Positions 1 through 48,227 of a stretch of DNA of 56,657 nt are shown here, one piece after another. A model generated the notes under the pieces. The model was not told the DNA's origin, searched no databases, and saw only the letters and a program-made list of their open reading frames with translations. The number at the start of each line of letters is the position of its first letter. The first letter of the stretch is position 1. A program made the position numbers and the translations under genes. Location of the stretch: positions 1-56,657 of IMG/VR virus record IMGVR_UViG_3300006115_000011; one strand, given 5' to 3'. Origin of the DNA: a virus (Duplodnaviria > Caudoviricetes).

Positions 1-813
1 TTCCTTCAAGGGTTGGCTGAACTCGGGTATGGGTTCGCCTACAGAGTTCTTGACGCTCAGCATTTCGGAGTGCCACAAAGACGCAAGCGTGTGTTCGTTG
101 TCGGATGTCTTGGAGACTGGCGAGGTGCCGCCAAAGTATTATTTGAGTCAGAAAGCCTGTGCGGGGATATTACACAGAGCAGACAAAAGAGGGAAGAAAC
201 TTCCGAATATGTTGCGGACTGCGTTGGAACTCTCCTCGCAAGAGACCATAAAGGAATAGACAATTACGATCATACTAAAATGATTGCAAGAAGCGTGAGT
301 GCTATTGATCTTAAAGATGTATCAAAGACATTGACTGCATCATATGGTATGGGAGGTGCAGATTTAGATATTAAGCCATTAGTATTAGAGCCAAATAAAG
401 CTTATGGTTTTGAGCCTGGCATTACAAAACGAGAAGGCAATCCATCAAGATTTTCAGAAGAGATATCACCAACACTAAGAGCGCAAATGGGAGATAATCA
501 AGTAGCAGTTGCTTACAATATTACTTTTTGTGATGCGAATGGTAAAAGAAAAGATAGGCCTAATGGCGGTTTATATGTAAACGAAACTGATACATCAAAT
601 ACTTTAACTAAGGCTGGTATTGGCACTAACGCAATTCAAAATATGCGCGTTAGAAGATTAACACCAATGGAATGCGAAAGACTCCAGGGCTTTCCTGATA
701 ACTATACAAACACACCAACATCAAGCGACACCACTCGATATAAAGCATTAGGCAATTCAATGGCAGTGCCAGTCATGAAATGGATTGGTGAAAGAATTAA
801 TGATATTACTTAG
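1..813 (+). CDS. DNA (cytosine-5) methyltransferase, 5'-truncated by window edge
   Basis: Frame open from base 1. C5-MTase motifs: VIII (LDAQHFGVPQRRKRVF), IX (RRLTPMECERLQGFPD), X (RYKALGNSMAVPV). Confidence 0.93.
   Translation, partial: FLQGLAELGYGFAYRVLDAQHFGVPQRRKRVFVVGCLGDWRGAAKVLFESESLCGDITQSRQKREETSEYVADCVGTLLARDHKGIDNYDHTKMIARSVSAIDLKDVSKTLTASYGMGGADLDIKPLVLEPNKAYGFEPGITKREGNPSRFSEEISPTLRAQMGDNQVAVAYNITFCDANGKRKDRPNGGLYVNETDTSNTLTKAGIGTNAIQNMRVRRLTPMECERLQGFPDNYTNTPTSSDTTRYKALGNSMAVPVMKWIGERINDIT
2..259 (+). CDS. Overlapping +1-frame ORF resembling the M.EcoHK31I beta polypeptide (5'-truncated, or starting at ATG 29)
   Basis: Open from base 2. WLNSGMGSPTEFLTL...CSLSDVLETGEVPPKYYLSQKACAGILHRADKRGKKLP resembles, from memory, the alternative-frame beta subunit of split C5-MTases. 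Confidence 0.6.
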   Translation, partial: SFKGWLNSGMGSPTEFLTLSISECHKDASVCSLSDVLETGEVPPKYYLSQKACAGILHRADKRGKKLPNMLRTALELSSQETIKE

Positions 814-966
814 ATACTTTGTATAGCAAAAAGCGCAATATATTAAACACAAACTAACTTGTATTGAATAGATTACATACAAAGGCGTTTGTGTAACAAA
901 AATGGTTATTTTTTACATGCAAAGTGTATTAAATATTAGAACGATTAATCTATCAAGGAGAACATT

Positions 967-1038
967 ATGTGGACTAAGCCAGCTGCAACTGAAATGAGAT
1001 TTGGTTTCGAAGTTACTATGTACGTAATGAATAAGTAA
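967..1038 (+). CDS. pqqA: Pyrroloquinoline quinone precursor peptide PqqA (23 aa, MWTKPAATEMRFGFEVTMYVMNK)
   Basis: Hand-translated. Has the ExxxY core (EVTMY) and the MWxxP/RFGFE leader. SD AAGGAG at 955-960; followed by an intrinsic terminator. Confidence 0.96.
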   Translation: MWTKPAATEMRFGFEVTMYVMNK

Positions 1039-1056
1039 TACACACGATACACATTC

Positions 1057-1080
1057 AGGGGAGCTTCGGCTCCCTTTTTT
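1057..1080 (+). terminator. Rho-independent terminator after pqqA
   Basis: GGGAGC-TTCG-GCTCCC hairpin followed by T6. Confidence 0.92.
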
Positions 1081-1176
1081 GTTGCCTATTTTTTAATCAG
1101 ATATCCATACACCTATATTTTTACCATGTCAACGTATTTATTATTTTTTTTTTTACTATTTTCTATATATATTTAA

Positions 1177-1220
1177 TCCATTTTAACTTATAGTTACATC
1201 ACTGCAACGTTATGCAGCAT
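1177..1220 (+). promoter_or_regulatory. Putative early promoter/leader, copy 1
   Basis: TCCATTTTAAnTnAnnnTTACATC is shared with 2615-2638. Contains TATAGT (-10-like) and is followed by a CTGCA-N6-TGCAG hairpin. Confidence 0.55.
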
Positions 1221-1239
1221 TTAAATAAAAGGAAAATAT

Positions 1240-1518
1240 ATGAAAACATTAGTACAAAACACAGTAGTAGATACATTAGGTTTACTCTTAGCTCAACAAG
1301 CCGATATCACAGCAAAGATTGACGCTATCAAGTCTCAACTCAAAGAATCAGGCGCTGGCATATACGAAGGTGCAATGTATAAGGCCAACGTTATTGTTGC
1401 TAACTATTCAACAGTTGACTACAAACAAGTCTTTGCAGAATGCTCAGTTCCAGCTGAAGTTATTGCTCGCAATACCAAAACACAAGAACGTGTTTCGTTA
1501 AAAGTAACTTCAAGATAA
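1240..1518 (+). CDS. Hypothetical early protein (92 aa)
   Basis: ORF with AAGGA SD; first gene after an AT-rich intergenic region. Confidence 0.75.
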   Translation: MKTLVQNTVVDTLGLLLAQQADITAKIDAIKSQLKESGAGIYEGAMYKANVIVANYSTVDYKQVFAECSVPAEVIARNTKTQERVSLKVTSR

Positions 1519-1528
1519 GGGGCCAATA

Positions 1529-1798
1529 GTGAAAACATTTTCAAGATCACAATTAAAAAGAGCTATGGGTAAAAAATACCCTGGCATATGGCTCAAGGAC
1601 TCAGAGTATTTTAACGGCTCTAAAAGCGCGTTATGGACTGGCGAAGGTTCATATATGCCCGACGAAGATGAAGCGTTTAATCACTATCGCCGTGACTTTG
1701 AGATGGGTATTCATCCTGAGTTGTATGCATACCTTAACGCACGCGGCTGGCATTGTGAGTGGTATGACGGCGGCACAATTTTAATCTATAAAAACTAA
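1529..1798 (+). CDS. Hypothetical early protein (89 aa)
   Basis: GTG start with AAGGGG SD; tightly packed operon. Confidence 0.75.
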   Translation: MKTFSRSQLKRAMGKKYPGIWLKDSEYFNGSKSALWTGEGSYMPDEDEAFNHYRRDFEMGIHPELYAYLNARGWHCEWYDGGTILIYKN

Positions 1799-1808
1799 GG
1801 AGACTAAT

Positions 1809-2186
1809 ATGGGAACAAGAGCAGTTTATACATTCAAAGATGAGAGCGGTTCATACAGCGTTTACAAGCACTACGATGGTTATCCTGAAGGTGAGGGCGG
1901 CGGCTTTGGAGCTTACGGCTTTATCAAGGCCGCTAAAGCTTATGCCTGGGAACTTCCACGATTCGATGCATCAGAGTTCGCAGCAGCATTCATCGCAGCA
2001 AATAAGACTCAAGCAGGCGGTGACGTATATCTTACTTATGGCCACGAAGAACACGGCGACCTTGAGTATAGATATGAAATATCAGCAGATAAAGACAAGC
2101 TTATAGTTAAAGTATTTAAAGGAGAAGATTACGACGAAGATTCACGCAAGCAAATATATTCACCACACGGGGAGGTAATACTATGA
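1809..2186 (+). CDS. Conserved phage hypothetical protein (MGTRA...YxHxDGYP type)
   Basis: SD AAGGAG; MGTR...VYKHYDGYPEG motif typical of small phage early proteins. Confidence 0.8.
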   Translation: MGTRAVYTFKDESGSYSVYKHYDGYPEGEGGGFGAYGFIKAAKAYAWELPRFDASEFAAAFIAANKTQAGGDVYLTYGHEEHGDLEYRYEISADKDKLIVKVFKGEDYDEDSRKQIYSPHGEVIL

Positions 2187-2431
2187 TTTCAACTAAAGAT
2201 ATTAAGAAGGGCATGCCAATCAAACTTAAAAGTGGTTGGTGTGCTGTGATGATGGACAACAGACGCGGTAACATTCGCATGGCTGAAGTAGACGGCATAT
2301 TCAAAGAGATTGGCAGCATCTATGCATCCGAGATCATTGAAGCGTTCGTAGACGGTAAATGGCAGCACGTAACTCACTCAATGCGCAAGGGCCACGCTGA
2401 GATACCTAACTTCTTATATGGAGGGTTTTAA
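2183..2431 (+). CDS. Hypothetical early protein (82 aa)
   Basis: GGAGG SD; ATGA overlap with the upstream gene. Confidence 0.75.
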   Translation: MISTKDIKKGMPIKLKSGWCAVMMDNRRGNIRMAEVDGIFKEIGSIYASEIIEAFVDGKWQHVTHSMRKGHAEIPNFLYGGF

Positions 2432-2432
2432 T

Positions 2433-2516
2433 ATGGCCCAGCCAACGCTTCCAGAGCTTATAGAAGCCCTTAAAAAGATAGATAAGATAGTTATAGTCAA
2501 AGTAGGGGGAAAATAA
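2433..2516 (+). CDS. Small hypothetical peptide (27 aa, MAQPTLPELIEALKKIDKIVIVKVGGK)
   Basis: Hand-translated; GGAGG SD at 2420-2424; lies just before a terminator. Confidence 0.5.
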   Translation: MAQPTLPELIEALKKIDKIVIVKVGGK

Positions 2517-2521
2517 GAATT

Positions 2522-2546
2522 AGGGCCTTAAATGGCCCTTTTTTTT
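2522..2546 (+). terminator. Rho-independent terminator
   Basis: AGGGCC-TTAAAT-GGCCCT hairpin followed by a T-run. Confidence 0.85.
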
Positions 2547-2603
2547 GATAGCAATATCCGTGCCAGCTATATAAAAATAATTGAAAATATTTACATTAAA
2601 GTA

Positions 2604-2660
2604 TTGCAATTCAGTCCATTTTAATTCAATATTACATCTACGGACACATTGATCCGCATA
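2604..2660 (+). promoter_or_regulatory. Putative early promoter/leader, copy 2
   Basis: TTGCAA (-35) N17 CAATAT (-10). Carries the shared motif at 2615-2638, followed by a CGGA-N8-TCCG hairpin. Confidence 0.6.
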
Positions 2661-2679
2661 ACTCTAAGGAGACAGTAAA

Positions 2680-2862
2680 ATGGCAGCAAAAAGATATATA
2701 GTTAGATTGTTTGGTTTAGGTGGAGAATTAGCTATGACTACATCAGAAAACCCATGGCATCCAAATACATGGTCCACAGAACGTGGTGACCTTGTGCAAG
2801 TATATGACAGCTTGGAAGACGACTTTCTTCCTGACTACTACATTCAAAGAGATGGTGAATAA
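2680..2862 (+). CDS. Hypothetical early protein (60 aa)
   Basis: SD TAAGGAG. Confidence 0.7.
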   Translation: MAAKRYIVRLFGLGGELAMTTSENPWHPNTWSTERGDLVQVYDSLEDDFLPDYYIQRDGE

Positions 2863-3158
2863 TGTTTAACTCAGAAGAATTTATTAATCAAATATCAGCC
2901 GAGATACCGAAAGACTCGGCTGACGAGCTTCACATTCTAGTTGAAGACGTTATAGGATGGGTAGGCAAGACTTTAGAAGATTTAAACGGTTACAGCACTA
3001 AAGATTTATGCCGTTACTTCATTGAAGCAGCTCAGTACAGAATCGATGATGACCGTAACACGATGAAAGAACTTAGATGTTTCGAGCAGTTGCTTGCTTT
3101 TTTTAAAGAAGAGCTAGACAAAATTGATGACTTTATTTTATCAAACAGGAGAGACTAA
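2862..3158 (+). CDS. Hypothetical acidic protein (98 aa)
   Basis: TAATG stop/start overlap. Confidence 0.7.
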   Translation: MFNSEEFINQISAEIPKDSADELHILVEDVIGWVGKTLEDLNGYSTKDLCRYFIEAAQYRIDDDRNTMKELRCFEQLLAFFKEELDKIDDFILSNRRD

Positions 3159-3159
3159 C

Positions 3160-3324
3160 ATGGAACAAAACGACTTAGAATTCTTAAAACAATACATCGA
3201 GAGCCGTGCTAAGCACGGTTACTCTGATGAAGAGTTATTTGAGATGCAAGCATCATTCGGCCCAGACGAAGAAGTTGTTGACATCTTTACTGGCAAAACA
3301 ATCAACATCTGGGGATCAAAATGA
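3160..3324 (+). CDS. Small conserved phage hypothetical protein
   Basis: SD AGGAG before ATG 3160; EELFEMxAxFGxxxxVVDIxTG pattern. Confidence 0.7.
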   Translation: MEQNDLEFLKQYIESRAKHGYSDEELFEMQASFGPDEEVVDIFTGKTINIWGSK

Positions 3325-3497
3325 TTAAAGACATATTGCATTTTGGTAAGTGGAAGACGATGCATAGCATCTGGGATCGCATGAAGATGTATAAGTACAC
3401 GCATCCAAAGATGATTAAATTTGCTAAGATAGCTATTGTTGTGATTGGCGTGTTTATGTTGATCAATCACTTAGTAAACAAACATCACGGTAGATAA
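3321..3497 (+). CDS. Small membrane protein (58 aa)
   Basis: Hand-translated; ATGA overlap; C-terminal hydrophobic segment IAIVVIGVFMLI. Confidence 0.6.
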   Translation: MIKDILHFGKWKTMHSIWDRMKMYKYTHPKMIKFAKIAIVVIGVFMLINHLVNKHHGR

Positions 3498-3628
3498 CTT
3501 GCATTCAATCGTTAATCTGTTAATATCTCATATAGATCACTTAGACATGATCTTGTTGCTGGTGCCATTAGTTTTGTTGTTACTAATGGTGCTGGTAGCA
3601 ATCATTCAAGTTGAAATAGAATTATATA

Positions 3629-3672
3629 AAACCCACAAGAAACCCAAACGAAACCTACCAAAAACCTAGCAG
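3629..3672. repeat. Four AAACC-headed 11-bp repeats (iteron-like)
   Basis: AAACCCACAAG / AAACCCAAACG / AAACCTACCAA / AAACCTAGCAG at 3629, 3640, 3651 and 3662. Confidence 0.6.
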
Positions 3673-3789
3673 GTTATTTTCGCGCAATGAAATAAAATTT
3701 TCGCGGAAGAACTTCAAACAATAAACTCTAGTAACAAAATATCATTTACTTGTATACATTTAGCTAATTCACGATTACTATTGGCTGCT

Positions 3790-4278
3790 ATGAGTGAATC
3801 AGTAAAGAAGAACGGTAGGCCATCTAAATATACGAGAGAGCTTGCCATCGATATATGCGATAGAATCAGTAATGGTGAATCGCTAGCATCGATCACGAAA
3901 GAGGACGGATATCCGCACAAGTCGACGGTGTACGAGTGGCTGTTGGATCGCCCTGATTTTCGCGACCTTTACACGCGCGCACGCGAGGACCAAGCTGACA
4001 CGTTGGCAGACGAAATCCAGAAGATCGCGGACGAAGAGCCGATGTATCTGTTTGATGACAAAGGTAACAAACGCGTCGATAACGGTTACGTGTCATGGAT
4101 CAAGCATAAGACAGACACACGCAAGTGGATCGCGTCCAAGTTGAAGCCGCAGAAGTATGGTGACCGCATTGGTGTTGAAGGCGTGAAGGACGGCGAGCCA
4201 GTAAAGATGGAAGTCACTGCATTGTTTGATGCGATTGTAGACAACTTAGAACTTACCAGACAAAACGAAGATGAATAA
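3790..4278 (+). CDS. terS: Terminase small subunit
   Basis: GRPSKYT...ICDRISNGESL...TVYEWL HTH and RKWIASKLKPQKYGD; upstream of terL. Start is 3781 (TTG) or 3790 (ATG). Confidence 0.9.
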   Translation: MSESVKKNGRPSKYTRELAIDICDRISNGESLASITKEDGYPHKSTVYEWLLDRPDFRDLYTRAREDQADTLADEIQKIADEEPMYLFDDKGNKRVDNGYVSWIKHKTDTRKWIASKLKPQKYGDRIGVEGVKDGEPVKMEVTALFDAIVDNLELTRQNEDE

Positions 4279-4516
4279 CAACTGCGACGTAAAAGATTGT
4301 TTGTTATGCGCTCTTGGTCACGCACATAAGCATATGACGCTGAATGATCTCGTTAAGCACTTAACTGATTGCGTTAAAGATAATGACGAGCTACTCACAA
4401 GATTAGATAAAGCACCGTGTGTGGATGCAGACAAGATTTACACAGGCGCTAACTTTGATGCAGCTCACGAATACGAGTTGAATAAAAGCACTGGCGAAGT
4501 TCAGCGCAAGACATGA
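4271..4516 (+). CDS. Hypothetical protein between terS and terL
   Basis: Overlaps both neighbours in operon fashion. Confidence 0.6.
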   Translation: MNNNCDVKDCLLCALGHAHKHMTLNDLVKHLTDCVKDNDELLTRLDKAPCVDADKIYTGANFDAAHEYELNKSTGEVQRKT

Positions 4517-5952
4517 ACAACTTAGCATCCGTACTTAAAGACGCGGATACTAAACGACAGTTCGCATCAATGCCGCTAGATAAGCAAAAGGCTTACGTGT
4601 GGCGCATGAACTGGCTAATGAAAGCACATAAGCATCAAGTGCTGCCACCTGGTGACTGGGCGATCTGGTTACTGCTTGGTGGTCGAGGTGCAGGTAAGAC
4701 AAGAACGGCAGCCGAGCAGATAGCTTGGTGGGCCTACAGTCAACCGAAGACACGCTGGCTAGTGTCAGCACCAACTGCGATGGACGTGCGTGGAACGTGC
4801 TTTGAAGGTGACTCAGGCTTATTGACGATCATGCCAGCCGAGATGATCGCAGAGTATAACAAGTCGCTGCTTGAGATTAAGCTGACTAACGGATCATTGA
4901 TCAAGGGTATCTCAGCATCAGAACCTGATCGCTTCCGAGGTGGACAATATCACGGCGCGTGGTTAGACGAGTTAGCAGCATGGGATTACTTACAAGACGC
5001 CTGGGACATGATCATGTTATCAGTGCGGCTAGGACAGCAGACAAGGATCATAGCGTCAACAACGCCACGACCTAAAGACTTAGTAGTAGATTTAGTAGGA
5101 CGAGCGCAGGATGGCTCAGGTGAAGTTGTAATGACTACCGCGTCAACATACGCGAACATTGCTAACTTAGCACCAAGCTTCCAGCAACAGATCCTACAGT
5201 ACGAAGGAACGAAGCTAGGCCGACAAGAGATCTATGCTGAGCTGATCGATCCAGAAGAAGGCGGCATAGTTAAACGTAACATGTTTAAGCTCTGGCCACA
5301 TGGTAAAGCGTTTCCTAAGTTCGAGTACATCATACAAAGCTATGATTGTGCTTACACTGAGAAGACGATCAACGATCCGACAGCTTGCTTAGTGTTTGGA
5401 TTGTTTAAGCCAATGGACGGACCGATGTCAGTGATGTTGATAGACGCGTGGCAGGATCATATGCAATACCCTGACTTGCGCAAGAAGGTAAGAGAGGAAT
5501 ACGAGGTAAGCTATGGAGCTGACAGTGAGAATGACACAGGCGAATTTGTCAAGGGTAAGCGCGTTGATCTCATACTTGTCGAGGACAAGGCAGCTGGAAT
5601 CAGTCTTGTACAAGATATGCAACGGGCGCATCTACCAGTGCGAGCTTACAACCCAGGGAAAGCGGATAAGGTGCAAAGACTATCGATTGTTGCAAACATT
5701 ATTGCACATGGCCGCGTCTGGATCCCAGAGTCCAACAACAACAAGGGATACGTTAGGGATTGGGCAGAAGGCTTCGTGTCTCAGATATGTGCGTTCCCTG
5801 AAGCAACGCATGATGACTATGTGGATGCGTGTACGCAAGCACTAAGATACTTTAGAGACGCTGGCCTATTAAGTATAGATCCAGCACCGAGTGAAGACGA
5901 TTACTATGCTGACGAAGAACCACAAGCACGTGTGAATCCTTATGCGATATAG
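4513..5952 (+). CDS. terL: Terminase large subunit
   Basis: Walker A GGRGAGKT, Walker B WLDE, motif III TTP, RNase H-like C-domain (SYDCA...HDDYVDA). Confidence 0.96.
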   Translation: MNNLASVLKDADTKRQFASMPLDKQKAYVWRMNWLMKAHKHQVLPPGDWAIWLLLGGRGAGKTRTAAEQIAWWAYSQPKTRWLVSAPTAMDVRGTCFEGDSGLLTIMPAEMIAEYNKSLLEIKLTNGSLIKGISASEPDRFRGGQYHGAWLDELAAWDYLQDAWDMIMLSVRLGQQTRIIASTTPRPKDLVVDLVGRAQDGSGEVVMTTASTYANIANLAPSFQQQILQYEGTKLGRQEIYAELIDPEEGGIVKRNMFKLWPHGKAFPKFEYIIQSYDCAYTEKTINDPTACLVFGLFKPMDGPMSVMLIDAWQDHMQYPDLRKKVREEYEVSYGADSENDTGEFVKGKRVDLILVEDKAAGISLVQDMQRAHLPVRAYNPGKADKVQRLSIVANIIAHGRVWIPESNNNKGYVRDWAEGFVSQICAFPEATHDDYVDACTQALRYFRDAGLLSIDPAPSEDDYYADEEPQARVNPYAI

Positions 5953-6030
5953 AAGAAGAATACACGAACACACACGTAAGGTTAGAAGCTTAAGAAGTAG
6001 ACGTGGCACAGTTAGATACTGGTATAAGGA

Positions 6031-6213
6031 TTGTCAAGAGTGGCAAATATAAAGTCACCGTGCAAGAGCGTATGCCAACTTATACCTGGCACAGAAACAT
6101 GTAAGGCATGTAAGCGAACAGTAGAAGAGATAACAAACTGGTATGACTACACACCAGCACAACGCAAAGCTGTAGTAAAACGCATCAAGGATCTAAATGG
6201 GCGTAACAAATAA
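6031..6213 (+). CDS. DUF1289-like Cys4 protein
   Basis: SPCxxVC...CxACxRTxEEIxxW pattern. Confidence 0.8.
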   Translation: MSRVANIKSPCKSVCQLIPGTETCKACKRTVEEITNWYDYTPAQRKAVVKRIKDLNGRNK

Positions 6214-9200
6214 ACTATTGCAAGAGATTACAGAAGCAGCAGCTAAAGGGCTTGAGCGTAAAGCAGTTGAAGTTGCAGCGCGTGATCCTGTATTACCTCC
6301 TCCATTACCGCGTGCCAAACCATACACAGACGAACAGTTACGCTCGTTTGCTGAACGCATGGCACCACAAGTCAATGGTGAATTCGTGCGTCTTGATCCT
6401 ACTACATCAAAAAACCCTGCTGACTTATCTTACAAAGTGTGGAAGAGACAACAAGAATTGCAACACACTATCGTGCCAACACGCGAAGTACAATCTACCG
6501 TACCATACGATCCAGCTAAGTGGGAAGGCCACGTGCTTTCTTCTATCGTAGGCGATCCTACCATCGGCGATAAAGAGATCATCGACATTAATGGCAAGAA
6601 GCTTGTTGTTCCATCTAAACAAGAAGCAGGATCACTATACGGATTAGGCGAGCCAAAAGATGCTTGGGCATCAACAAAGAACGCCGCTAAAACTATCCAG
6701 GGCAGGATTATAGATACGAGCAACATATATAACGCTCCAGTGTTAGGCGTATACACTAAAGGCGGATCAGGATCTTATTCGTATGCGCATCACATTAACG
6801 ATGCATTGCTTAAAAACATATACAGCAACCTTGATCAGATGACGCCTAAACAAATTCAAGCATTCAATACACTCATACGTAATCACACACCAGAGTTTGC
6901 TGGCATTGAAAATCTTGAAGCATCGCTTAATCAATTCAAAACAAATCCTGAGTTGCGCAAAAAGTTTTACGCGGAAGCTATCAAGCCAACTAACTCAGCA
7001 ACAATGAACATACCTAACGGATCAGATGTAGTACACGCCGCACTTGAACCTGATTTACGTTACTTAGAGTCAGGCGCTACAGGCCACTCCATTATGCAGC
7101 TAGATCCAAGTCAAACTACATTGCAGCCAGCAACGCATACAACTTACACAAATAGAATACCAAGACTTGAAAATACGCCAGTGATGCAATCAAGCACACC
7201 AATACCATATCAACTTCAATATCCTGATCAAATGCAAGCGATCATGAATAACCCAAGACAAGCACCGCAACCATTCGGCACAATTTCAATGGGCGGCGCA
7301 TCACAAATCAATGACGCTCAACACGTAGATCAAATAAGCAAGTACTTGCAATTCATGAAAGAACTTACTGGACGCGCTAAGGGCGGATCAATACACATGG
7401 GTGCAGGCGGTTCATTAGCTGAAGCTATTGTTAAAGGCGTAGAAGAATCAGCAGGTAAAGCAGTTGCACCAAAAGTTAATCGTATAGACATGCACTTTAA
7501 AGATGTAACTAAACGCGTGCCTGAATTATCAAAAGGATTCCAGCAATTAACTACTGGAGAAATAACACCAGCAGGTTATGAAGCTCTTGTGAATCAATAC
7601 AAGCCAGTAACACCATTTAGCTTTGTACCAAAACCAGCAACACCAGAAGAAGCTATTGGTGCGCTAAAAGAAAATCAAAAAGGTTTATACGGCGTTCCTT
7701 CACAAATACTACAAGAAGGCCATCCAGTAGGATTACGTTTAGACATTCCTGCATACACTAACAAAGGCGTATGGGTTCCAACTATACACGAACAAATATC
7801 TGGTCACGGCGCTGGCCCACTCATCGGACATGAAAGCGTAGCTCACGTTACTGATCCAACATTCGGCATGTCACAAAAGGCAGCCGCATCAATCGCTGGT
7901 GGCAATCCTAAAGGCACGATAGCAACTATCAAAGGCAACTGGAAGCCAACCACGCCAGATGAAACTGTAGCAAAAGCCACAGAGATTATGAATGATCCTG
8001 AGTGGATACAAGTTGGTATGGATCCAGAGCGTCACTCTCATTTTTATGATAGAGCAACAATGGAACCAGTAGTCGCTGGCAAAGAAGCAATACAAGTTGG
8101 CCCAGCAGTATTCGTAAAGAATCCAACATACGGAAAAAAAGAAGACTTCTTATACAAAGATGGTGGCCGCGCTTATGCACAAGGCGGTGGCGTACATATG
8201 GCTGATGGCGGATCTAACATGCAACAAAATGCTGTTGATCCTATTACTGCTTACTTTATGCAAAACATTAATCCAACTAATTTGGATATGATGCCATCAC
8301 CTAGCTCATCATACATTCCACAAAAAATTACACCAAGCCCAAGCCAAGCAACGTTTAACAAAGTATCAGGCATTAGTCCAGTTACAAACATTATTAAAGA
8401 AGTTACAGGCGGTATACAAAATGGCGTGCAAAATCAGTTGCCAACAGATATACAGAATGCTTATAAAAACGGACCACAATCAATTAGTGACATAGGCATA
8501 CGTGCAGCTAATTCACTTGCTGGATTCCCAATGGATATTGCTAATAGCTTAGGTTATGGCAATCCATCATCACCATACAACAACAATGTAGTTCCAAGTC
8601 AATCACAACTTAACTACAATATGCCTGCAAAAAAACCAGCTCCATTAACTACAGAAGCGTTTAATGAAGCAACCATGCCGTTACAGTCAGGCAATAGCTA
8701 TCCTGCATTAGAAACTGCCGCAGCATCTATTGGACCTGGCATAGCAGAAGATGTTGGATCTATTGGTAAGACAGCAGTAAAAAAAGGCGCTAACTTCCTT
8801 GGCCAAGAACTTGTAAACGCTAAAGGCGCTAACCGTAACCTTATCGGTAAATACTTAAACGCTATCGATCCTGAGTTAAACATTATCAAGCCACAAGGCG
8901 GCATGTTAGTTAGCGGAGAGACAGAATTAGAAAGAGAACTTCGTCATATAAAGAAAGATGAAGGTGTGGTTGGAAGATATGTAGAGCCAGAAAATATGAT
9001 TAATGTTAATGACAGTTTAAAAGATAAGCGTGCAGTTGCATTAAACAATTGGATTGATACCAAAGTTAAAAAATATATTCGCAATCAAGCTGGCACAGAA
9101 AACGATCCAATATTTAAAGCTATTGAATCAGGCGTTCAATATAACTTTGATCCTGCTATGGGTGATACTAAGTACATGACACAAGTTAAAAGAGCTAAAG

Positions 9201-10543
9201 CTGGATTTCCTGAAGAAGGTTCAGCTACTACAGACTTAGGTAAAGAGTGGCAATACAAAGTTGATTCAATATTTAAACCACATACCGCTGAAGATATTAA
9301 AGAAATATACAGAAATCCAAATATTAATGAAAAACAAAAACAATCAAGACTTCGTATAGAGCATGACCTTCCAATATATGACGAAAAAGATTATGACGCT
9401 CTTAAACTTATTAATGAAATACCTGATAAAAATGTATACACAATTGGTGGAACTAATATTGCAAGAAAGCTAGGGCTTGATCATGTAGCCGATGTATTAC
9501 ATGAAGACTTAACTTCAGGAAGATTGCAACCTGAACAGCTAAATCAAATGTCTATCGAGAAAGCTGTACGCCGTGCTGCAGATTATGACGCACAAAAAGC
9601 TCGCGAGATGACTAAGGCTCACGCTACGTCAGTTGAAGGCATGCCAATACCTAAACAATACGATGATGGTTTCAAATGGGTAGAGCTTAAACATCCTACT
9701 GAATCAGAGAAAACAAAAGGCGCACTTAAATCAGAAGGGGAAATGATGGGACATTGCGTTGGCAGCTATTGTCCTCAAGTTGAAAGTGGCCACACAAAAA
9801 TATATTCATTGCGCGGCCCTGATAACAAATCACATGTAACTATTGAAGCAACTAAAAAGAATCATCTTAATGATTGGTTAGACGCAAATAAAGAAGAGAT
9901 TGAAAAAGATCCTTTATTAAAACAAATGTCTTACTACGATGCTGATGAAAAATATCCTGGTATGTATTCAGAGGAAGAAGTACAACAAGCATACATTGCA
10001 GAAATAACAAAAATGTTAAAAAGAAAAGGTGCTCCAGTACATGAAGCTCCAAACTCATGGATAGATATTGAGCAAGTTAAGGGTAAACAAAACAAACGCC
10101 CTGATGACAAATACCAAAAGTATGTAACTGACTTCATAAAAAATAATCCAACTGGACATGAGATTGCTGACATACATGAATTAAATAATACAAACCTTCA
10201 TGATGTTCAATCTATGATAGCTGAAGGCGTGATGCCTAAAAAACTTCATATGCATCCTATTGTAGATAAAGCAGTTGGTATAGATCAACCTCATCTTGCA
10301 GCAAGAATGAATGATCCTAGATTTAGTAATGAAATTACAGATGAAAAATTTAACCTATTTAAAAACATTGGCAGAGACTTGGCAAACAAAGGCCAATACT
10401 ATGTTGATGATGAAGACATATTAAATGCAATCAAAACAAAATATTTGCCAATTAAAAAAGCCAAAGGTGGGCCAATAGATTTAGAAAAAGAATACAGATT
10501 AGCAAATGTAATAGATTTTAACTCAAGGAGACGTTATGGCTGA
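6197..10543 (+). CDS. Large multi-module (polyvalent-like) protein with a C-terminal PcfJ-like domain
   Basis: 1448 aa. EGEMMGHCVGSY...IYSLR...VTIE...QVKGKQN is PcfJ-like. Modules are separated by AKGG/AGG and KDGG/AQGG/ADGG linkers. Confidence 0.75.
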   Translation: MGVTNKLLQEITEAAAKGLERKAVEVAARDPVLPPPLPRAKPYTDEQLRSFAERMAPQVNGEFVRLDPTTSKNPADLSYKVWKRQQELQHTIVPTREVQSTVPYDPAKWEGHVLSSIVGDPTIGDKEIIDINGKKLVVPSKQEAGSLYGLGEPKDAWASTKNAAKTIQGRIIDTSNIYNAPVLGVYTKGGSGSYSYAHHINDALLKNIYSNLDQMTPKQIQAFNTLIRNHTPEFAGIENLEASLNQFKTNPELRKKFYAEAIKPTNSATMNIPNGSDVVHAALEPDLRYLESGATGHSIMQLDPSQTTLQPATHTTYTNRIPRLENTPVMQSSTPIPYQLQYPDQMQAIMNNPRQAPQPFGTISMGGASQINDAQHVDQISKYLQFMKELTGRAKGGSIHMGAGGSLAEAIVKGVEESAGKAVAPKVNRIDMHFKDVTKRVPELSKGFQQLTTGEITPAGYEALVNQYKPVTPFSFVPKPATPEEAIGALKENQKGLYGVPSQILQEGHPVGLRLDIPAYTNKGVWVPTIHEQISGHGAGPLIGHESVAHVTDPTFGMSQKAAASIAGGNPKGTIATIKGNWKPTTPDETVAKATEIMNDPEWIQVGMDPERHSHFYDRATMEPVVAGKEAIQVGPAVFVKNPTYGKKEDFLYKDGGRAYAQGGGVHMADGGSNMQQNAVDPITAYFMQNINPTNLDMMPSPSSSYIPQKITPSPSQATFNKVSGISPVTNIIKEVTGGIQNGVQNQLPTDIQNAYKNGPQSISDIGIRAANSLAGFPMDIANSLGYGNPSSPYNNNVVPSQSQLNYNMPAKKPAPLTTEAFNEATMPLQSGNSYPALETAAASIGPGIAEDVGSIGKTAVKKGANFLGQELVNAKGANRNLIGKYLNAIDPELNIIKPQGGMLVSGETELERELRHIKKDEGVVGRYVEPENMINVNDSLKDKRAVALNNWIDTKVKKYIRNQAGTENDPIFKAIESGVQYNFDPAMGDTKYMTQVKRAKAGFPEEGSATTDLGKEWQYKVDSIFKPHTAEDIKEIYRNPNINEKQKQSRLRIEHDLPIYDEKDYDALKLINEIPDKNVYTIGGTNIARKLGLDHVADVLHEDLTSGRLQPEQLNQMSIEKAVRRAADYDAQKAREMTKAHATSVEGMPIPKQYDDGFKWVELKHPTESEKTKGALKSEGEMMGHCVGSYCPQVESGHTKIYSLRGPDNKSHVTIEATKKNHLNDWLDANKEEIEKDPLLKQMSYYDADEKYPGMYSEEEVQQAYIAEITKMLKRKGAPVHEAPNSWIDIEQVKGKQNKRPDDKYQKYVTDFIKNNPTGHEIADIHELNNTNLHDVQSMIAEGVMPKKLHMHPIVDKAVGIDQPHLAARMNDPRFSNEITDEKFNLFKNIGRDLANKGQYYVDDEDILNAIKTKYLPIKKAKGGPIDLEKEYRLANVIDFNSRRRYG

Positions 10544-13148
10544 GATGCCCATTGAACAGGAATATGACAGACATATTGCTGGTATAAAAACACAAGAGAA
10601 TGCAGACGGAAGTGCCGAAGTTGAAATACCTGAACAAGAAGAAGGTATTGTAGAGAACGAAGACGGCTCAGCTACTGTACACCTTGAAGAATTTAAAGGT
10701 CCAGCTGAAGATGAAGATTTCTATTCTAACTTAGCTGAATCAGTCAACTTATACGACTTAGATAAGATTGGTAACCGTTATTTAGATTTAATTAAGAAGG
10801 ATAAAGAAGCACGTGAAAAACGCGATAAACAATACGAAGAAGGTATTAGGCGAACTGGTTTGGGTGATGACGCTCCTGGTGGCGCGAATTTTATGGGAGC
10901 TTCTCGCGTGGTACACCCAGTTATGGCAGAAGCCTGCGTCGACTTCGCATCAAGTGCGATCAAAGAACTCTTTCCGCCTGATGGCCCAACGCGAATCCAA
11001 ATCTTAGGTGACGCTGACGAGATCAAGACAGAAGTAGCAGAACGTAAACGTGATTACATGAACTGGCAATTAACGGAGCAGATTGAAGAGTTCCGTGACG
11101 AGCAAGAACAGTTACTCACACAGTTACCGTTAGGTGGCTCACAGTTTATGAAGTTATGGTATGACGAAAAGAAACGTCGTCCATGCGCAGAGTTCGTGCC
11201 TATTGATAACATTCTTTTACCATTCGCATCAGTTAACTTCTACACATCACAACGTGTAACTGAAGTACAACAAATTACTGAGTGGGAATTTAATCAACGT
11301 GTTGATCGTGGTTTATATCGCGATGTTAATCTTATTCGTGCTACATCAGAACCTGAAGAAACTAAATCAGAACAAGCTTCTAATAAAGTTGAAGGTCGTC
11401 AATGGCAAGATAATGAAGATGGTTTACGCACTGTATATCACATCTATACATACCTTGAACTTGATGATGACAAACGTACTAAAGGCGAATCAGCACCATA
11501 CATTATGATGATTGATAGTCTTGAACACAAAATACTAGGTCTATATAGAAACTGGGAGGAAGGCGATGAAACGTTTAACAAGTTGGATTGGCTCATTGAA
11601 TTCAAGTTTATTCCTTGGAGGGGTGCTTACGCAATTGGTCTCCCTCATCTTATTGGCGGCCTTAGTGCTGCTCTTACTGGCGCTCTCCGCGCTCTATTGG
11701 ATACCGCTCATATTAATAACAGCGCTACTATGCTTAAACTCAAAGGCGCGAAGATTAGTGGTTCGTCACAACAGATCGAAGTAACACAAGTATCAGAAAT
11801 TGAAGGCGCACCAGGTGTAGATGATGTACGTAAGATTGCTATGCCTATGCCATTTAATCCACCATCACAAGTATTGTTTGAATTACTTGGTTGGTTAGAT
11901 ACTGCTGCTAAAGGTGTGGTATCAACATCTGAAGAGAAGATTGCAGACATTAATGCAAACTCCCCAGTAGGTACAGCACAAGCTTTAATTGAGCAAGGCG
12001 CAAAAGTATTCTCAGCTATTCACGCACGATTACATGATTCACAAAGACGTGTATTGCAAGTGCTTGGCCGTATCAATCGTTGGTATCTAGATGACATGAA
12101 GAAAGGCGACGTTGTTGCTGACCTTCCTGTTTCACGTGATGACTTCAAACGTAACTCAGACATCGTTCCTGTTTCTGATCCGCACATATTTTCAGAAACA
12201 CAACGTATGGCACAGAATCAAGCCGTATTGCAATTAATGACACAGTTCCCACAAGCGTTTGATCAAAATGCTGTGATTACACGTGTATTAAAACAAATGA
12301 AGGTGCCAGGTGTTAATGAGTTAATGCCAGCTAATGCACAACCAGCAGAGATGGATGCATCTAACGAAAATGCTGCAATGGCTTTAGGTAAATCAGCTTT
12401 TGCTTACCCTGATCAAGATCAACTATCGCATATTCAAGCTCACCTTGATTTTGCATTAGATCCTAATTTAGGTAGCAACAACTTGATTGCACCACAATTC
12501 ATACCACAAGTATTAGAGCATGTAAAACAACATATGGTTCTTTGGTATACACAACAAATGCAAACATATGCTGGTGGCCATCAAAAAGTTAACTTGCAAA
12601 AATATGAAGATAGCAAGCTTAAAACACAAATTGATAAAGTGGTGGCGATTGCTGGTCAACATGTTAAGTTGGATTCACAACAAACATTTTCTGGCGTAGC
12701 ACAAGCATTACAACAACTTGGTCAACTCATGCAGAAATTTGCTCCACAACCGCAAATGGATCCATCAGATCAAGCTGTATTACAAGCTTCTATGGCAGAA
12801 ACAAATCGTCGCGCACAACGCGATCAAGCCGATGTTCAATTGGCTCAACAAAAACTTCAAGCTGATACTCAGTTAAATAGCAACAAGGTTCAAACGGATC
12901 AAGCAATTAAGAACCAAGCTTTACAAACTGATATTCAATTGAAGCAACAAGAGTTAGCACAAGCAAGTGACGCAGATGCAGCTCGCCTTAAAACGGATAT
13001 TGCAATGAATTCACAAAACAATGCTACTGCTGAAAAGATCAAGGCTGCGCAATTAGCCCACGATCAACAGAAGATGCATACAGATTTGGCAACTCATATG
13101 CATGATTCTTTACATAAACACTTAGGAGATAGTAATGGCAATTATTAA
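10536..13148 (+). CDS. Portal protein
   Basis: 870 aa; between terL and the head genes; podovirus-type portal features with a C-terminal Gln-rich coiled barrel. Confidence 0.9.
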   Translation: MAEMPIEQEYDRHIAGIKTQENADGSAEVEIPEQEEGIVENEDGSATVHLEEFKGPAEDEDFYSNLAESVNLYDLDKIGNRYLDLIKKDKEAREKRDKQYEEGIRRTGLGDDAPGGANFMGASRVVHPVMAEACVDFASSAIKELFPPDGPTRIQILGDADEIKTEVAERKRDYMNWQLTEQIEEFRDEQEQLLTQLPLGGSQFMKLWYDEKKRRPCAEFVPIDNILLPFASVNFYTSQRVTEVQQITEWEFNQRVDRGLYRDVNLIRATSEPEETKSEQASNKVEGRQWQDNEDGLRTVYHIYTYLELDDDKRTKGESAPYIMMIDSLEHKILGLYRNWEEGDETFNKLDWLIEFKFIPWRGAYAIGLPHLIGGLSAALTGALRALLDTAHINNSATMLKLKGAKISGSSQQIEVTQVSEIEGAPGVDDVRKIAMPMPFNPPSQVLFELLGWLDTAAKGVVSTSEEKIADINANSPVGTAQALIEQGAKVFSAIHARLHDSQRRVLQVLGRINRWYLDDMKKGDVVADLPVSRDDFKRNSDIVPVSDPHIFSETQRMAQNQAVLQLMTQFPQAFDQNAVITRVLKQMKVPGVNELMPANAQPAEMDASNENAAMALGKSAFAYPDQDQLSHIQAHLDFALDPNLGSNNLIAPQFIPQVLEHVKQHMVLWYTQQMQTYAGGHQKVNLQKYEDSKLKTQIDKVVAIAGQHVKLDSQQTFSGVAQALQQLGQLMQKFAPQPQMDPSDQAVLQASMAETNRRAQRDQADVQLAQQKLQADTQLNSNKVQTDQAIKNQALQTDIQLKQQELAQASDADAARLKTDIAMNSQNNATAEKIKAAQLAHDQQKMHTDLATHMHDSLHKHLGDSNGNY
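11566..11784 (+). CDS. Putative nested membrane protein in the +1 frame of the portal
   Basis: GGAGG SD just upstream of ATG; ~40 aa hydrophobic core with a basic tail; local portal Leu codons avoid TTA. Confidence 0.4.
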   Translation: MKRLTSWIGSLNSSLFLGGVLTQLVSLILLAALVLLLLALSALYWIPLILITALLCLNSKARRLVVRHNRSK

Positions 13149-13591: not shown

Positions 13592-13776
13592 GGTACTCAT
13601 CCGACTATATTGGCGCTGTAAAAGCGCGTCAAGCCGAGATTGCTTACGCATTAGCTAGTGGCAACGCTACTAATTTTGAAAGCTATCAACGTTTGGTCGG
13701 AGAGTATGCAGGCTTATCTGCTGCATTAGATATTTTTAATAACTTACTCAAAGAAGAGGAAACAAAAGAACTATGA
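13588..13776 (+). CDS. Conserved small protein upstream of GroES
   Basis: LASG...FESYQRLVGEYAGL pattern; gene order portal - small ORF - GroES. Confidence 0.75.
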   Translation: MRYSSDYIGAVKARQAEIAYALASGNATNFESYQRLVGEYAGLSAALDIFNNLLKEEETKEL

Positions 13777-14195
13777 GTGAAACATCAGTAGCTGTTGATT
13801 CAGCTGATTTACTGGAAGCTTTTCCAGTTGTAGATCCTGGTGCTATACCATTAGGCGCAAGAATATTAGTACAAATGCGTTTACCAAAGAAAAAGATGAC
13901 GGCTTCAGGAATCATCTTAGCTGAGGAAACTAGGGATACAGAAAAAGCACAGAATCCAATTGGCAAAGTAATAGCGATTGGACCATTAGCGTTTAAAAAG
14001 CGCGACACAATGGAATCATGGCCAGAAGGTTCATGGTGTTCTGTAGGGGACTTTGTTCGCGTACCACGCTGGACAGGTGATCGTTGGGAAATAAAAATTG
14101 ACGCAGATACAACTGTTGAATTTATGCTCATGAACGACCACGAAGTCATTGCTAAATTAACCAGTAGTCCATTAGAAATGAAGGCATTTGTATGA
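13773..14195 (+). CDS. groES: GroES/Cpn10-like co-chaperonin
   Basis: PLGARILV...TASGIIL...GKVIAIGP...VGDFV...LMNDHEVIA. Confidence 0.88.
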   Translation: MSETSVAVDSADLLEAFPVVDPGAIPLGARILVQMRLPKKKMTASGIILAEETRDTEKAQNPIGKVIAIGPLAFKKRDTMESWPEGSWCSVGDFVRVPRWTGDRWEIKIDADTTVEFMLMNDHEVIAKLTSSPLEMKAFV

Positions 14196-16358: not shown

Positions 16359-17273
16359 ATGGCAGCTCCAATGCGTAGTACGGACTTCCGAAGTATCGTT
16401 GAACCAATCCTTAATGAATGCTTCGATGGCGTATATGATCAACGTACCGATGAATGGTCACGCGTTTTCCGTGAACAAGACGGTATTCCAAGAAACTATC
16501 ACGAAGAACCAGTTCTTTACGGTTTCGGCACAGCACCACAGTTACCTGATGGCACACCAGTGTCTTATCAACAAGGTGGTGTTCTCTTCTTACAACGTTA
16601 TGTTTACCAAGTTTACGGACTTGCGTTTGCATTAACGAAAGTTCTTGTAGAAGATGGTGACCATATCCGTATCGGACAAGTTTATGCAAGACACTTAGCA
16701 CAATCTTTAATTGAAACTAAAGAAACACTTTGCGCTAACATTCTTAACAATGCATTTAACTCTTCATACACAGGTGGCGACGGCGTTCAATTGAACTCTA
16801 CAGCTCACCCAATCGTTAACGGCACTGTAAGTAACTTACTTTCAACTGCTGCTAACCTTTCACAAACATCACTTGAACAAATGTTAATTCAAATCCGTCA
16901 AGCTGTTGACAACAACGGTAAGAAGATTCGTTTAGTACCAAGACAACTTGTTGTTGCTCCTGGTAACATTTTCCAAGCTGAAGTATTGTTAAAATCTGTT
17001 TTAAGAACAGGTACTGCTAACAACGACGTAAACCCAATTAAATCAATTGGTTTATTAGATGAAGGCGCTGCTGTTCTTTCACGTTTAACATCTTCAACAG
17101 CATGGTGGGTTCAAACAGATGCTCCAGAAGGTATGAAGCTCTTAATGCGTCGTAAGTTAGAAAAAACTATGGAAGGTGACTTTGAAACAGATTCAATGCG
17201 TTACAAAGCTACTGAGCGTTATATTCCAGGTTGGACTGACTGGCGTGCAATGTTTGGTACTCCAGGCGTTTAA
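16359..17273 (+). CDS. Major capsid protein (HK97 fold)
   Basis: Strong SD AGGAGG; biased codon use; C-terminal DFETDSMRYKATERY...DWRAMFG; followed by a terminator. Confidence 0.9.
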   Translation: MAAPMRSTDFRSIVEPILNECFDGVYDQRTDEWSRVFREQDGIPRNYHEEPVLYGFGTAPQLPDGTPVSYQQGGVLFLQRYVYQVYGLAFALTKVLVEDGDHIRIGQVYARHLAQSLIETKETLCANILNNAFNSSYTGGDGVQLNSTAHPIVNGTVSNLLSTAANLSQTSLEQMLIQIRQAVDNNGKKIRLVPRQLVVAPGNIFQAEVLLKSVLRTGTANNDVNPIKSIGLLDEGAAVLSRLTSSTAWWVQTDAPEGMKLLMRRKLEKTMEGDFETDSMRYKATERYIPGWTDWRAMFGTPGV

Positions 17274-17352: not shown

Positions 17353-18333
17353 ATGCCACAATTTAGTGACGATCTGTTTTTAGGTTCAGCAAAAACCTTT
17401 ATGGGCATCGCTAAACAGGATTCAACTTCTGTTTTCACAGGCTCAATTGCAACAACAACATTAACTGTTACAGCTATGTTATCTGGCGATCCATTGGTCG
17501 TTGGTCAATATATTACTGGTGCTAACGTTTCAGCAGGTACTTACATTACTGCATTCGTTTCAGGCACAGGTGGTACTGGTACATACACTGTTAACACTTC
17601 ACAAACTGCTGCTAGCGCAACTGTTTACGCTAACGGTAATGCTTTATTAGGTGATCCAGCTCCAATGGACTTAGGTATTGGCCCATTAGGTCGTATCTAT
17701 ATATGGGACACAATCCCTGTTACTAAAGCTAATAACAACGTATCAGCTGCTGCTACATATTCAGCTGCAGGTTCTGCAACACTTGCTGCAGGTACAGGCA
17801 CTTCATCTGTAACACGTACAGACGGCACAACAGTAATTCAATTAGACGTACCACGTGGTCTTTCAATCACAATTGGTACAGGTACAATTACAAACCGTAA
17901 CGTAACTATTTCAGGTTATGACTATTATGGCCAAGCAATGACTGAAATCATCGCAACAGGCACTACACAATCTACAACTATCAACGGTAAAAAAGCTTTC
18001 TACCAAGTTTCTGGTGCAACAGTATCAGGCGCAGTAGGCGGTACAGTTGCTATTGGTACATCAGACGTTTTAGGTTGCCCTGTTCGTTTCATTGACAGAG
18101 GTTATCTTGATAGCGTGGGTTGGAATAACGTTCTTGCTGAAGATGTTGCTACTACAGTAGTTGCTGATTTAACAAACCCAGCTACATCATCAACTGGTGA
18201 CGTACGCGGCACAATCACTCCATCAAGCTCACCTGATGGCACTAAACGTTTAGTTGTTGGTATTTACTTACCAGCTATCGCTGTAGGCCCAAATGCAACA
18301 CGACTTGGCGCTCTTGGCGTAGACCAAGCTTAA
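17353..18333 (+). CDS. Virion structural protein with one intact 'FTGSI...TGTYTVN' beta domain
   Basis: Thr/Gly-rich, directly after the capsid gene; shares a domain with 25702-27117. Confidence 0.7.
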
Positions 18334-25701: not shown

Positions 25702-27117
25702 ATGGCACAAACTGGATATACACCAATACTACTTTATTACAGCACATCAGCTGGAGTAACTCCTTCCGCTTCTAACTTGGCTAATGGTGAGTTAGCTCTT
25801 AATGTTACTGACGGAAAACTTTTCTTTAATCAAGGCGGAACAGTACAAACATTAGCAAGTACTGCAACTACCGATCCAACTAATGTAAATATTACTGGCG
25901 GTAAAATTAATGGCACAAGCATTGGCTATACAACACAATCTGGTGGCGTATTTAATGCGCTTGTAGATACTGCATTAACGCAAAACCAAGTTCTTTATAC
26001 TGGTTATGCTGGCCTATTATCTGGAAGCTCTGCATTTACATTTAATCCAACAACCAATATAACAACGCATACTGGATCTATTTCTGTAGGCGCTGACTCT
26101 CAATTTACATCCACTGGATCATTACAAATTCCAACTGGAACAACATCACAACGTCCAAGCCCAATATCTAATGCTGGTTTAATACGTTTTAATACTACTT
26201 TATTTACGTTTGAAGGTTTTGCATCAACCGCAACAAACGCAATTACAGCATCTATCAGTAACGGTTCAGGCCAAGCTGGTACAACACTTAACGTATCTTC
26301 AGTTACATCATCAACACTTGCCGTAGGCCAATACATTACAGGCACAGTAGGCGGTACTTCATTTACTGGCGCTATTTCAGGAACAACACTAACTGTAAGC
26401 GCAGTGGCTTCTGGATCATTGGCAGTAGGAACAATCGTGTCTGGATCATCTACTGCATCAGTTGCAGGTTATATTAGTAATGGCACATCAGGAACGGCTG
26501 GAACTGTATTAACAGTAACATCAGTTACTTCAGGTGCTTTAGCTGTAGGAACTTATATTACAGGCACAGGCGTAAGCGTAGGCACACAAATTACTGCATT
26601 AGGAACTGGTACAGGCGGCACAGGAACATACACTGTAAACGTATCTCAAGTAGTAGGCACATCAGGCACTCCTGTAACATTTACTGGAACATCTATTGTT
26701 GCCACTAATACAACAATTACAGCGCTTGGAACAGGAACTGGCCAAACAGGTACATATACTGTAAATACATCACAATATATTCCATCAACATCAAGTTTAT
26801 CTGGATCTATACAAATAGCATCTGGAACGCAAATTACAGCGCTAGGCACAGGTACAGGTGGCACAGGTACTTATACAGTTAATAACTCACAATTAGTTCC
26901 AAACGGTTCATTAACATCAGTGACTGGTATTTGGGGATCAATTGGTGGTGGTGCTACAGGCTCAGGCGGTGATACTGTGTTCTACATTAACAGTAATACG
27001 ATTACAACATCGTATACATTGCCAACTGGTAAAAATGCAATGTCTACTGGCCCAATTACATTGAACGCTTCACAAACAGTTACAATACCTTCTGGTCAAC
27101 GTTACGTAGTTCTATAG
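25702..27117 (+). CDS. Tail fibre protein with three nested beta-domain copies
   Basis: [17 protein letters not shown]-terminus; three [22 protein letters not shown] repeats; [10 protein letters not shown]-terminus. Confidence 0.85.
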
Positions 27118-47310: not shown

Positions 47311-47311
47311 G

Positions 47312-48218: not shown

Positions 48219-48227
48219 ATTTTTTCC

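Follow-up and report, generated by a model that had tools for sequence, protein, structure and literature searches.

Whether a phage can profit from a gene of only 72 bp, encoding the precursor peptide of a cofactor whose synthesis needs several further enzymes, is the question raised by positions 967-1038 of the DNA analysed here. The window, i.e. the whole stretch of DNA that was analysed, is an entire virus record from IMG/VR, 56,657 b long and classed as 'linear', with a CheckV completeness estimate of 100% and a G+C content of 38%. PqqA is the sole component of the PQQ pathway that is consumed, one peptide giving one PQQ while the enzymes turn over; PqqE cross-links the Glu/Tyr pair of PqqA, and PqqD serves as the peptide chaperone. 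Methylophilaceae, with LD28/Ca. Methylopumilus in lakes and OM43 in coastal waters, live by oxidising methanol and other C1 compounds, and energy enters their metabolism through a PQQ-dependent methanol dehydrogenase. If a phage gene fed the PQQ pathway, viral infection would be linked directly to C1 carbon flux.

The pqqA cassette and the phage genome around it

The features at the beginning of the window are the following.

1-813, + strand: C-5 cytosine DNA methyltransferase, C-terminal part (PF00145, 92.6 bits, profile positions 130-322; PHROG 116)
814-954, + strand: upstream intergenic region or 5' leader, partly conserved with the relatives L015 and G005
955-960, + strand: Shine-Dalgarno motif AAGGAG, 6 nt ahead of the ATG, read from the sequence
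967-1038, + strand: pqqA, an ORF of 23 codons plus stop from ATG to TAA (PF08042 and TIGR02107; peptide equal to host copies)
1057-1082, + strand: intrinsic terminator, a G+C-rich hairpin then a T run (hairpin call and fold; near-identical in the relative G005)
1240-1518, + strand: ORF of 92 aa with no family match, downstream of pqqA and syntenic with pqqA in G005

The preliminary description had read a 23-aa pqqA with its own Shine-Dalgarno motif and terminator at this place, and all three elements are present. The ORF on the + strand translates to MWTKPAATEMRFGFEVTMYVMNK, a peptide of 23 aa that fits the very short PqqA type (about 20-30 aa and a conserved leader at the N-terminus), and the ExxxY pair ascribed to it is found as Glu15 and Tyr19 within an EVTMY motif. 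A profile search against the PqqA families, which had been suggested as a check, gave 42.4 bits for Pfam PF08042 (E 6.4e-11, cut-off 21.1) and 40.4 bits for the NCBIfam equivalog TIGR02107 (E 1.8e-10, cut-off 20), both scores being about twice the curated cut-offs. Judged by these sequence features, the ORF at 967-1038 is a true and intact pqqA, with a match far beyond chance.

The terminator hairpin (1057-1076) has 8 pairs, 5 of them G-C, and a loop of 4, and is followed by TTTTGTT; folding of the 18-nt core of the terminator gave -11.5 kcal/mol. No Rfam family reached the gathering score over the whole window, and two sub-threshold sRNA matches (20.9 and 19.7 bits) cover the terminator hairpin only. 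No sigma-70-like promoter meeting the scan criteria was found on the + strand between 814 and 966, and a TTTACA-like box near 912-917, noticed by eye, was dropped as it has no acceptable -10.

Linkage to pqqBCDE, a trait of the PqqA family, is absent in the window, which contains no pqqB-E. The earlier statement that no other pqq genes accompany the precursor gene stands: no PqqB/C/D/E-type domain appeared in a Pfam scan of the window's 62 ORFs, and six-frame searches of the whole record for PqqD (PF05402) and PqqE (TIGR02109) returned 0 matches. In the same window, the Pfam/PHROG annotation contains no methanol dehydrogenase domain, and no radical-SAM or other modifying enzyme was found by the Pfam scan and the PqqE search. 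Linkage to pqqBCDE is not universal in the PqqA family, orphan copies being present in host genomes.

The remainder of the record reads as a tailed-phage genome, with the following main features assigned by PHROGs/Pfam.

3781-4278: small terminase (TerS)
4513-5952: large terminase (TerL)
10536-13148: portal
16359-17273: capsid
34383-34829: lysozyme
55372-56028: 2OG-Fe(II) oxygenase (PF13759), in the early arm

The PHROGs/Pfam annotation further includes tail-fibre-like proteins, two SU10-adaptor-like proteins, a PD-(D/E)XK nuclease, a DnaB-like helicase, RusA and a RecA-dependent nuclease. Viral genes thus lie on both sides of pqqA, and terminase, portal, capsid, tail and lysozyme genes are all present, as expected from the claim of a stand-alone gene in a phage; the pqqA carrier is a lytic-looking tailed phage with a bona fide phage genome. 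No tyrosine integrase was found in the record, no integrase domain in the 62 ORFs, and no tRNA in the window. The methyltransferase gene is truncated by the window start, profile positions 1-129 being missing. The 2OG-Fe(II) oxygenase class is among the metabolic genes listed for OM43 phages in the available text of a previous report (PMC10580990).

The nearest cultured phages are the Caulobacter phages GB2A, RLK, KcrB and RW, with 77.6% identity in the capsid and 40.5% in TerL, and an uncultured spring virus (MW202545) is closer than these, with 87.8% and 63.7%, respectively. As neither the Caulobacter relatives nor MW202545 are among the pqqA matches in 50,697 phage records, the present phage belongs to a lineage distinct from every cultured methylophage. 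Near-identical DNA in cultured phages is confined to a 147-bp methyltransferase match in Roseobacter phages.

Several other features of the genome were observed. A GroES/Cpn10-like co-chaperonin gene (13773-14195; PF00166, 33.3 bits) stands between the portal region and the genes for the head, and a 1448-aa ORF (6197-10543) with only a weak PcfJ-like match (29.2 bits) lies between terminase and portal. The ORF at 18346-19482, without a family match, is built of imperfect repeats of 25-66 nt rich in Lys, Gly and His codons (families D2, D5 and D6). Two adjacent tail-fibre-like genes (27126-27755 and 27761-28402) are paralogous, and a 70-nt repeat (17544-17613; 26589-26901) is common to the ORFs at 17353-18333 and 25702-27117, both assigned to PHROG 38233. 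The window end (56529-56657) holds an open frame of 43 aa, and the record may lack a few hundred bases.

Independent contigs, synteny and the putative host

A short host-like gene in a viral contig calls for a check of the assembly, and the preliminary description had named a host-DNA chimera as an outcome that would undo its proposal. The stretch 1-8000 was found in 24 listed freshwater or lake DNA runs; four runs were examined, none of them flagged as a possible source of the record, though X4 and X7 may share the source's campaign. A contig of 1,769 b from X4 spans positions 88-1856 with 0 differences, a contig of 1,487 b from X7 spans 30-1516, also with 0 differences, and a contig of 1,101 b from X16, a run of another year labelled lake water, spans 797-1722 with 25 differences and one gap. 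Each of the three bridges pqqA and both phage flanks. In all four runs, the mapping of other pqqA copies raised the read depth over 901-1050, and such repeats can mislead assemblers, which is what speaks for a chimeric assembly or for host DNA contaminating the viral contig. However, both junctions are bridged by contigs of three other runs, synteny is kept in a complete genome of a relative that has terminal repeats, the flanks do not resemble those of host copies and phage genes stand on both sides, so that a chimera is refuted and contamination is extremely improbable.

The synteny comes from a comparison of 20 IMG/VR loci encoding a TerL relative, among which only G005 is at least 90% complete. 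G005 has 55,059 b, direct terminal repeats and a TerL 86% identical to that of the window, and carries pqqA; its cassette together with the downstream ORF (L274 1486-2099) is 69% identical to window positions 955-1522. The cassette alignment omits the row L089, which was in the wrong orientation. In G005 the upstream neighbour of pqqA is a homologue of window positions 56246-56528, and the methyltransferase is absent at the corresponding place. By this arrangement, the window is circularly permuted and the methyltransferase is an extra, inserted gene. In the other 19 records, which are fragments of 7-68% estimated completeness, pqqA was not seen; three of these fragments, with TerL identities of 65-69%, include 6.5 kb upstream of TerL without pqqA. 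The more distant TerL relatives (63-69% identity) are thus without pqqA in the available sequence, which makes the gene accessory in the wider lineage.

To place the peptide among bacteria, species-representative genomes were searched with a back-translated EMRFGFEVTMY pattern, which matched at least 125 loci. Among the 125 listed, 94 have Methylophilaceae-group names, 27 have higher-rank labels only and 4 are labelled as other families, all of the latter being MAGs (Acidovorax caeni twice, Rhodocyclaceae and Pseudomonadales). The Methylophilaceae-group titles comprise Methylotenera, Methylophilus, Methylobacillus, Methylovorus, Pseudomethylobacillus, Novimethylophilus, Ca. Methylopumilus, OM43, Methylophilaceae and Methylophilales. 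The phage peptide had been called nearly identical to Methylophilaceae PqqA, and it is in fact identical to chromosomal copies at 23 of 23 positions; the 133 host ORFs listed include the window peptide, without a single difference, 31 times, a count in which overlapping loci enter some copies twice.

At the DNA level the phage copy is clearly distinct. The best nucleotide match of the ORF among the listed loci is 90%, in a Ca. Methylopumilus sp. MAG, and the flanks of the window are 30-45% identical to those of the host copies, which is the random level. The longest exact run shared with any listed host locus is 23 nt and lies within the ORF, and identity passes into the flank by at most 1 base, one 22-nt run reaching a single base beyond the stop codon.

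Because of pqqA itself, the G+C content of 38% and the lake habitat, the host is likely a streamlined freshwater member of Methylophilaceae, possibly of the genus Ca. Methylopumilus or Methylotenera. This assignment depends on pqqA, as the window DNA of 47000-56657 had no match in the 201 Methylophilaceae genomes that were searched with it. All 81 Methylophilaceae genomes searched contain pqqA, in 1-12 places each (391 in total, median 5; these are matches, not copy numbers), and the small genomes of 1.2-1.4 Mb (n=11) have three places in 10 cases and two in 1. In Ca. Methylopumilus universalis (1.3 Mb), the pqqBCDE operon (G021:C1:575931-579599) has no pqqA before pqqB, and pqqA is found in three orphan cassettes at about 416, 457 and 1186 kb, with a layout like that of the phage cassette. 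Orphan chromosomal copies in Methylophilaceae resemble the phage gene in having an identical peptide, a Shine-Dalgarno motif, 23 codons and a terminator, unlinked from pqqBCDE, but host copies differ from the viral copies as a group in lacking the perfect TATAAT that many viral ones have, in more often having a clear terminator and in their unrelated flanks.

Distribution, selection and promoters of viral pqqA

The prevalence of the gene, for which a tblastn search had also been suggested, was assessed by querying 50,697 phage records with the peptide (E up to 10), and 12 records matched, ten of them true viral matches. The ten are Venkman, P19250A, MEP301, MEP401, MEP402, four Melnitz records and one uncultured podovirus, whose peptide is 100% identical to that of the window; Venkman, MEP301, MEP401, MEP402 and Melnitz are Methylophilales phages and P19250A is a Methylophilaceae phage. 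An intact ORF of 23-24 codons with a Shine-Dalgarno-like motif was present at 6/6 viral sites read among the ten. The remaining two matches, both to 'Acinetobacter phage MD-2021a', were rejected as phage evidence, the locus read being bacterial DNA. These records, CAKLQF020000010.1 (104210-112263) and CAKLQH020000055.1, look like bacterial chromosome, and the former carries ppk, 5'-nucleotidase and a full pqqABCDE operon in the interval given.

In IMG/VR, the same EMRFGFEVTMY pattern matched at least 120 loci, and all 120 among the matches listed have intact ORFs of 23-25 aa. The pattern scans fix the amino acids of codons 9-19 and the counts are lower bounds. A gamma-proteobacterial pattern, LRIGFEVTMY, gave 0 matches in IMG/VR, and this pattern does match the Acinetobacter locus. 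Contigs of at least 20 kb hold 30 of the 120 listed loci, and 21 of these 30 were searched for enzymes of the pathway, with no genuine PqqE (0/21) and no PqqC (0/21); the sole match in the PqqE search was a radical-SAM protein with 27.7 bits against a cut-off of 381, and both PqqE and PqqC were detected in two host genomes used as positive controls. Six of the 21 contigs are at least 90% complete, with 36-66 kb. The carriers are unrelated phage types with genomes from 35 to 141 kb.

Over the 11 codons outside the search pattern, dN/dS was 0.18 for viral copies (104 distinct sequences) and 0.16 for host copies (115), thus purifying selection acts on the viral copies as strongly as on the host copies. 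Synonymous differences come close to saturation (pS 0.51-0.63), which indicates that the viral copies are old. Among the 110 viral copies of 23 codons, M1, W2 and P5, all outside the search pattern, are invariant and T3 is present in 107; Glu15 and Tyr19 are likewise invariant in 110/110, but conservation at codons 9-19 arises by construction because the search pattern fixes them.

The signals around the gene differ in part between viral and host copies. Among the matches listed, a Shine-Dalgarno-like motif precedes 108/114 viral and 121/125 host cassettes, and a terminator-like hairpin is rarer after viral copies (62/113) than after host copies (112/122). A perfect TATAAT at a distance of 25-65 nt upstream was found for 39/113 viral copies, where 9.2 are expected from shuffled sequence, and for 0/120 host copies, where 4.4 are expected, again among the matches listed. 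Many phages seem to have moved pqqA behind a phage-type promoter of their own; the present window is not among the TATAAT-bearing viral copies.

Proposed role, alternative explanations and known systems

With its viral context, its host metabolic homologue and purifying selection, pqqA here can be classed as a putative viral auxiliary metabolic gene. We propose, with a probability of about 0.7, that the phage copy maintains the supply of precursor to the host enzymes and thereby sustains the methanol dehydrogenase that powers phage production. In this proposal pqqA, at the end of the replication or early arm and just ahead of a strong terminator, would be expressed from there; host PqqD and PqqE would cross-link Glu15 to Tyr19 of the phage peptide, and a host protease, PqqB and PqqC would finish PQQ. 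As the phage peptide is identical to host peptides at 23/23 positions, it should be convertible to PQQ. The phage would bring only the consumable part and rely on host enzymes for the rest, and precursor supply, PQQ-dependent methanol dehydrogenase and energy would continue as host transcription fails. Expression, processing by host enzymes and a benefit in terms of PQQ, methanol oxidation or burst size are steps that we infer.

Studies of bacteria bear on whether precursor supply matters. In a methylotroph with five pqqA copies, the operon-borne pqqA1 and the orphan pqqA3 are expressed far above the other three, according to the text available (PMC9851590). Over-expression of pqqA alone is cited in the accessible part of a further article as increasing PQQ in Gluconobacter (PMC7936290, citing Wang 2016); as a counterpoint, pqqA ranked below pqqB in the work cited there, which concerns another genus, outside Methylophilaceae. 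The genome counts and the cited papers point the same way, i.e. to hosts that handle pqqA as a dosage-sensitive gene. On the other side of the balance, PQQ is a stable and reusable cofactor, therefore additional PQQ made within a single latent period may be of little use.

Among the alternatives, the gene might be a neutral passenger, a tiny host cassette captured repeatedly and useless to the phage. Host copies dispersed over a median of 5 places per genome would make capture easy, and the gene is accessory in this lineage, with distant TerL relatives that do without it. However, a useless passenger is hard to reconcile with reading frames that are intact in 120/120 listed IMG/VR copies and at 6/6 viral sites, with a dN/dS of 0.18 at near-saturated synonymous sites, with the presence of the gene in unrelated phage types from 35 to 141 kb and with flanks that are phage-specific, at 30-45% identity to those of the host, and we consider this explanation unlikely. 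The peptide or its transcript might instead have another use, such as titrating PqqD/PqqE, acting as a regulator or undergoing a modification other than that leading to PQQ. The phage-type promoter suggested by a perfect TATAAT at 39/113 viral against 0/120 host copies among the matches listed fits such a use, since expression from it could far exceed host levels. Yet a peptide identical to the host substrate would be processed and not block the enzymes, the window has no radical-SAM or modifying enzyme, and no Rfam RNA family was detected at pqqA, which leaves another use with a small chance.

The host-like 72 bp might also serve as an attP-like core or anchor for integration into a host pqqA copy, given that small multi-copy host genes, e.g. 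tRNAs, are classic integration targets and that an exact run of 23 nt is common to the phage and some host copies. Such a role is very unlikely, as the record lacks a tyrosine integrase and its 62 ORFs lack an integrase domain, and as the longest exact run sits inside the most constrained coding part with at most 1 base in the flank. The full ORF, moreover, keeps its own Shine-Dalgarno motif and start codon everywhere, and synonymous changes accumulate as the peptide is held. A search of 201 Methylophilaceae genomes, run without a positive control, found 0 matches to the DNA of 47000-56657, i.e. no integrated copy of that part.

The proposal that a phage pqqA supplies precursor to its host is not new, and the preliminary description had left open whether such a gene had been reported. 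It has been, in 2020: Coutinho et al. (Microbiome 8:163, PMC7678222) described PqqA in the Lake Baikal viral population VP_266, assigned to Methylophilaceae, and, in the part of the article available, proposed viral PqqA as an auxiliary metabolic gene supporting methanol dehydrogenase, the same role as suggested here. The present finding is less new for this reason. Both VP_266 and the present phage are uncultured freshwater viruses that are assigned to Methylophilaceae as hosts and carry a stand-alone PQQ precursor gene, but VP_266 is, by the same text, T4-like with about 35% G+C and was reported together with a viral methanol dehydrogenase (PMC7678222), whereas the present phage has 56.7 kb, is Caulobacter-phage-like and has no methanol dehydrogenase. 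What is added is one more, unrelated carrier lineage, with evidence from synteny and from independent assemblies. A reservoir-sediment study (Appl Environ Microbiol 2026, PMC13188868) also places pqqA on viral contigs; in the portion of its text available, virus-encoded pqqA, pqqD and pqqE are treated as phosphate-solubilisation genes, i.e. in a phosphorus-cycling frame and with pqqD and pqqE too, unlike the pqqA alone found here.

The cultured methylophages Venkman, P19250A, MEP301, MEP401/402 and Melnitz likewise have intact pqqA genes of 23-24 codons with a Shine-Dalgarno motif, and their peptides are 77-96% identical to that of the window, but they belong to other phage lineages and carry the gene at other genome positions. 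Venkman has pqqA on the strand opposite to the neighbouring genes at either side, and in MEP301 the same holds for the immediate neighbours. No mention of a phage pqqA or PQQ gene was found in the available text of the Melnitz, MEP401/402, MEP301 and Venkman papers, and a literature search, with supplements outside its scope, found no paper describing pqqA as general to cultured methylophages. The broader pattern would be that of a near-universal, host-specific and mostly unannotated methylophage gene.

On a more tentative level, at a little under even odds, pqqA might be a signature gene of Methylophilaceae phages and essentially of these only, acquired and retained independently by unrelated lineages of 35-141 kb, including the present Caulobacter-phage-like one, and often placed behind a phage-type promoter. 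This idea agrees with the ten true phage matches in 50,697 records, all of them methylophages or the one uncultured virus, with at least 120 IMG/VR loci of the Methylophilaceae type versus 0 of the LRIGFEVTMY type, and with the TATAAT contrast between viral and host copies (39/113 versus 0/120 among the matches listed). If so, pqqA would be the 'psbA of methylotrophy', supply of a 23-aa precursor would be the point at which the energy metabolism of an obligate methylotroph breaks most easily during infection, and the 72-bp gene would be a reliable host marker for uncultured phages. For cyanophage psbA, expression and benefit have been demonstrated, and its product D1 is a turnover-prone protein subunit. 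By analogy, in both cases the phage would carry one rapidly consumed part of the host energy system and the host would supply the rest, but psbA encodes a protein subunit with demonstrated expression and benefit, whereas phage pqqA encodes a cofactor precursor with a putative role.

Finally, the suspicion that gene callers usually miss a 72-bp gene is borne out by the cultured methylophage records, which at the pqqA site have either no feature or a 'hypothetical protein', on the opposite strand in two records checked. Most gene callers have a size limit that pqqA does not reach, which is why annotations of cultured methylophages do not include it, and a plain profile search would supply many viral contigs with a host-specific marker and a metabolic gene. 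The antisense 'hypothetical protein' annotated over the pqqA ORF at the loci 2067-2195 of MW202481.1 and 76100-76195 of Melnitz is probably a gene-caller artefact.
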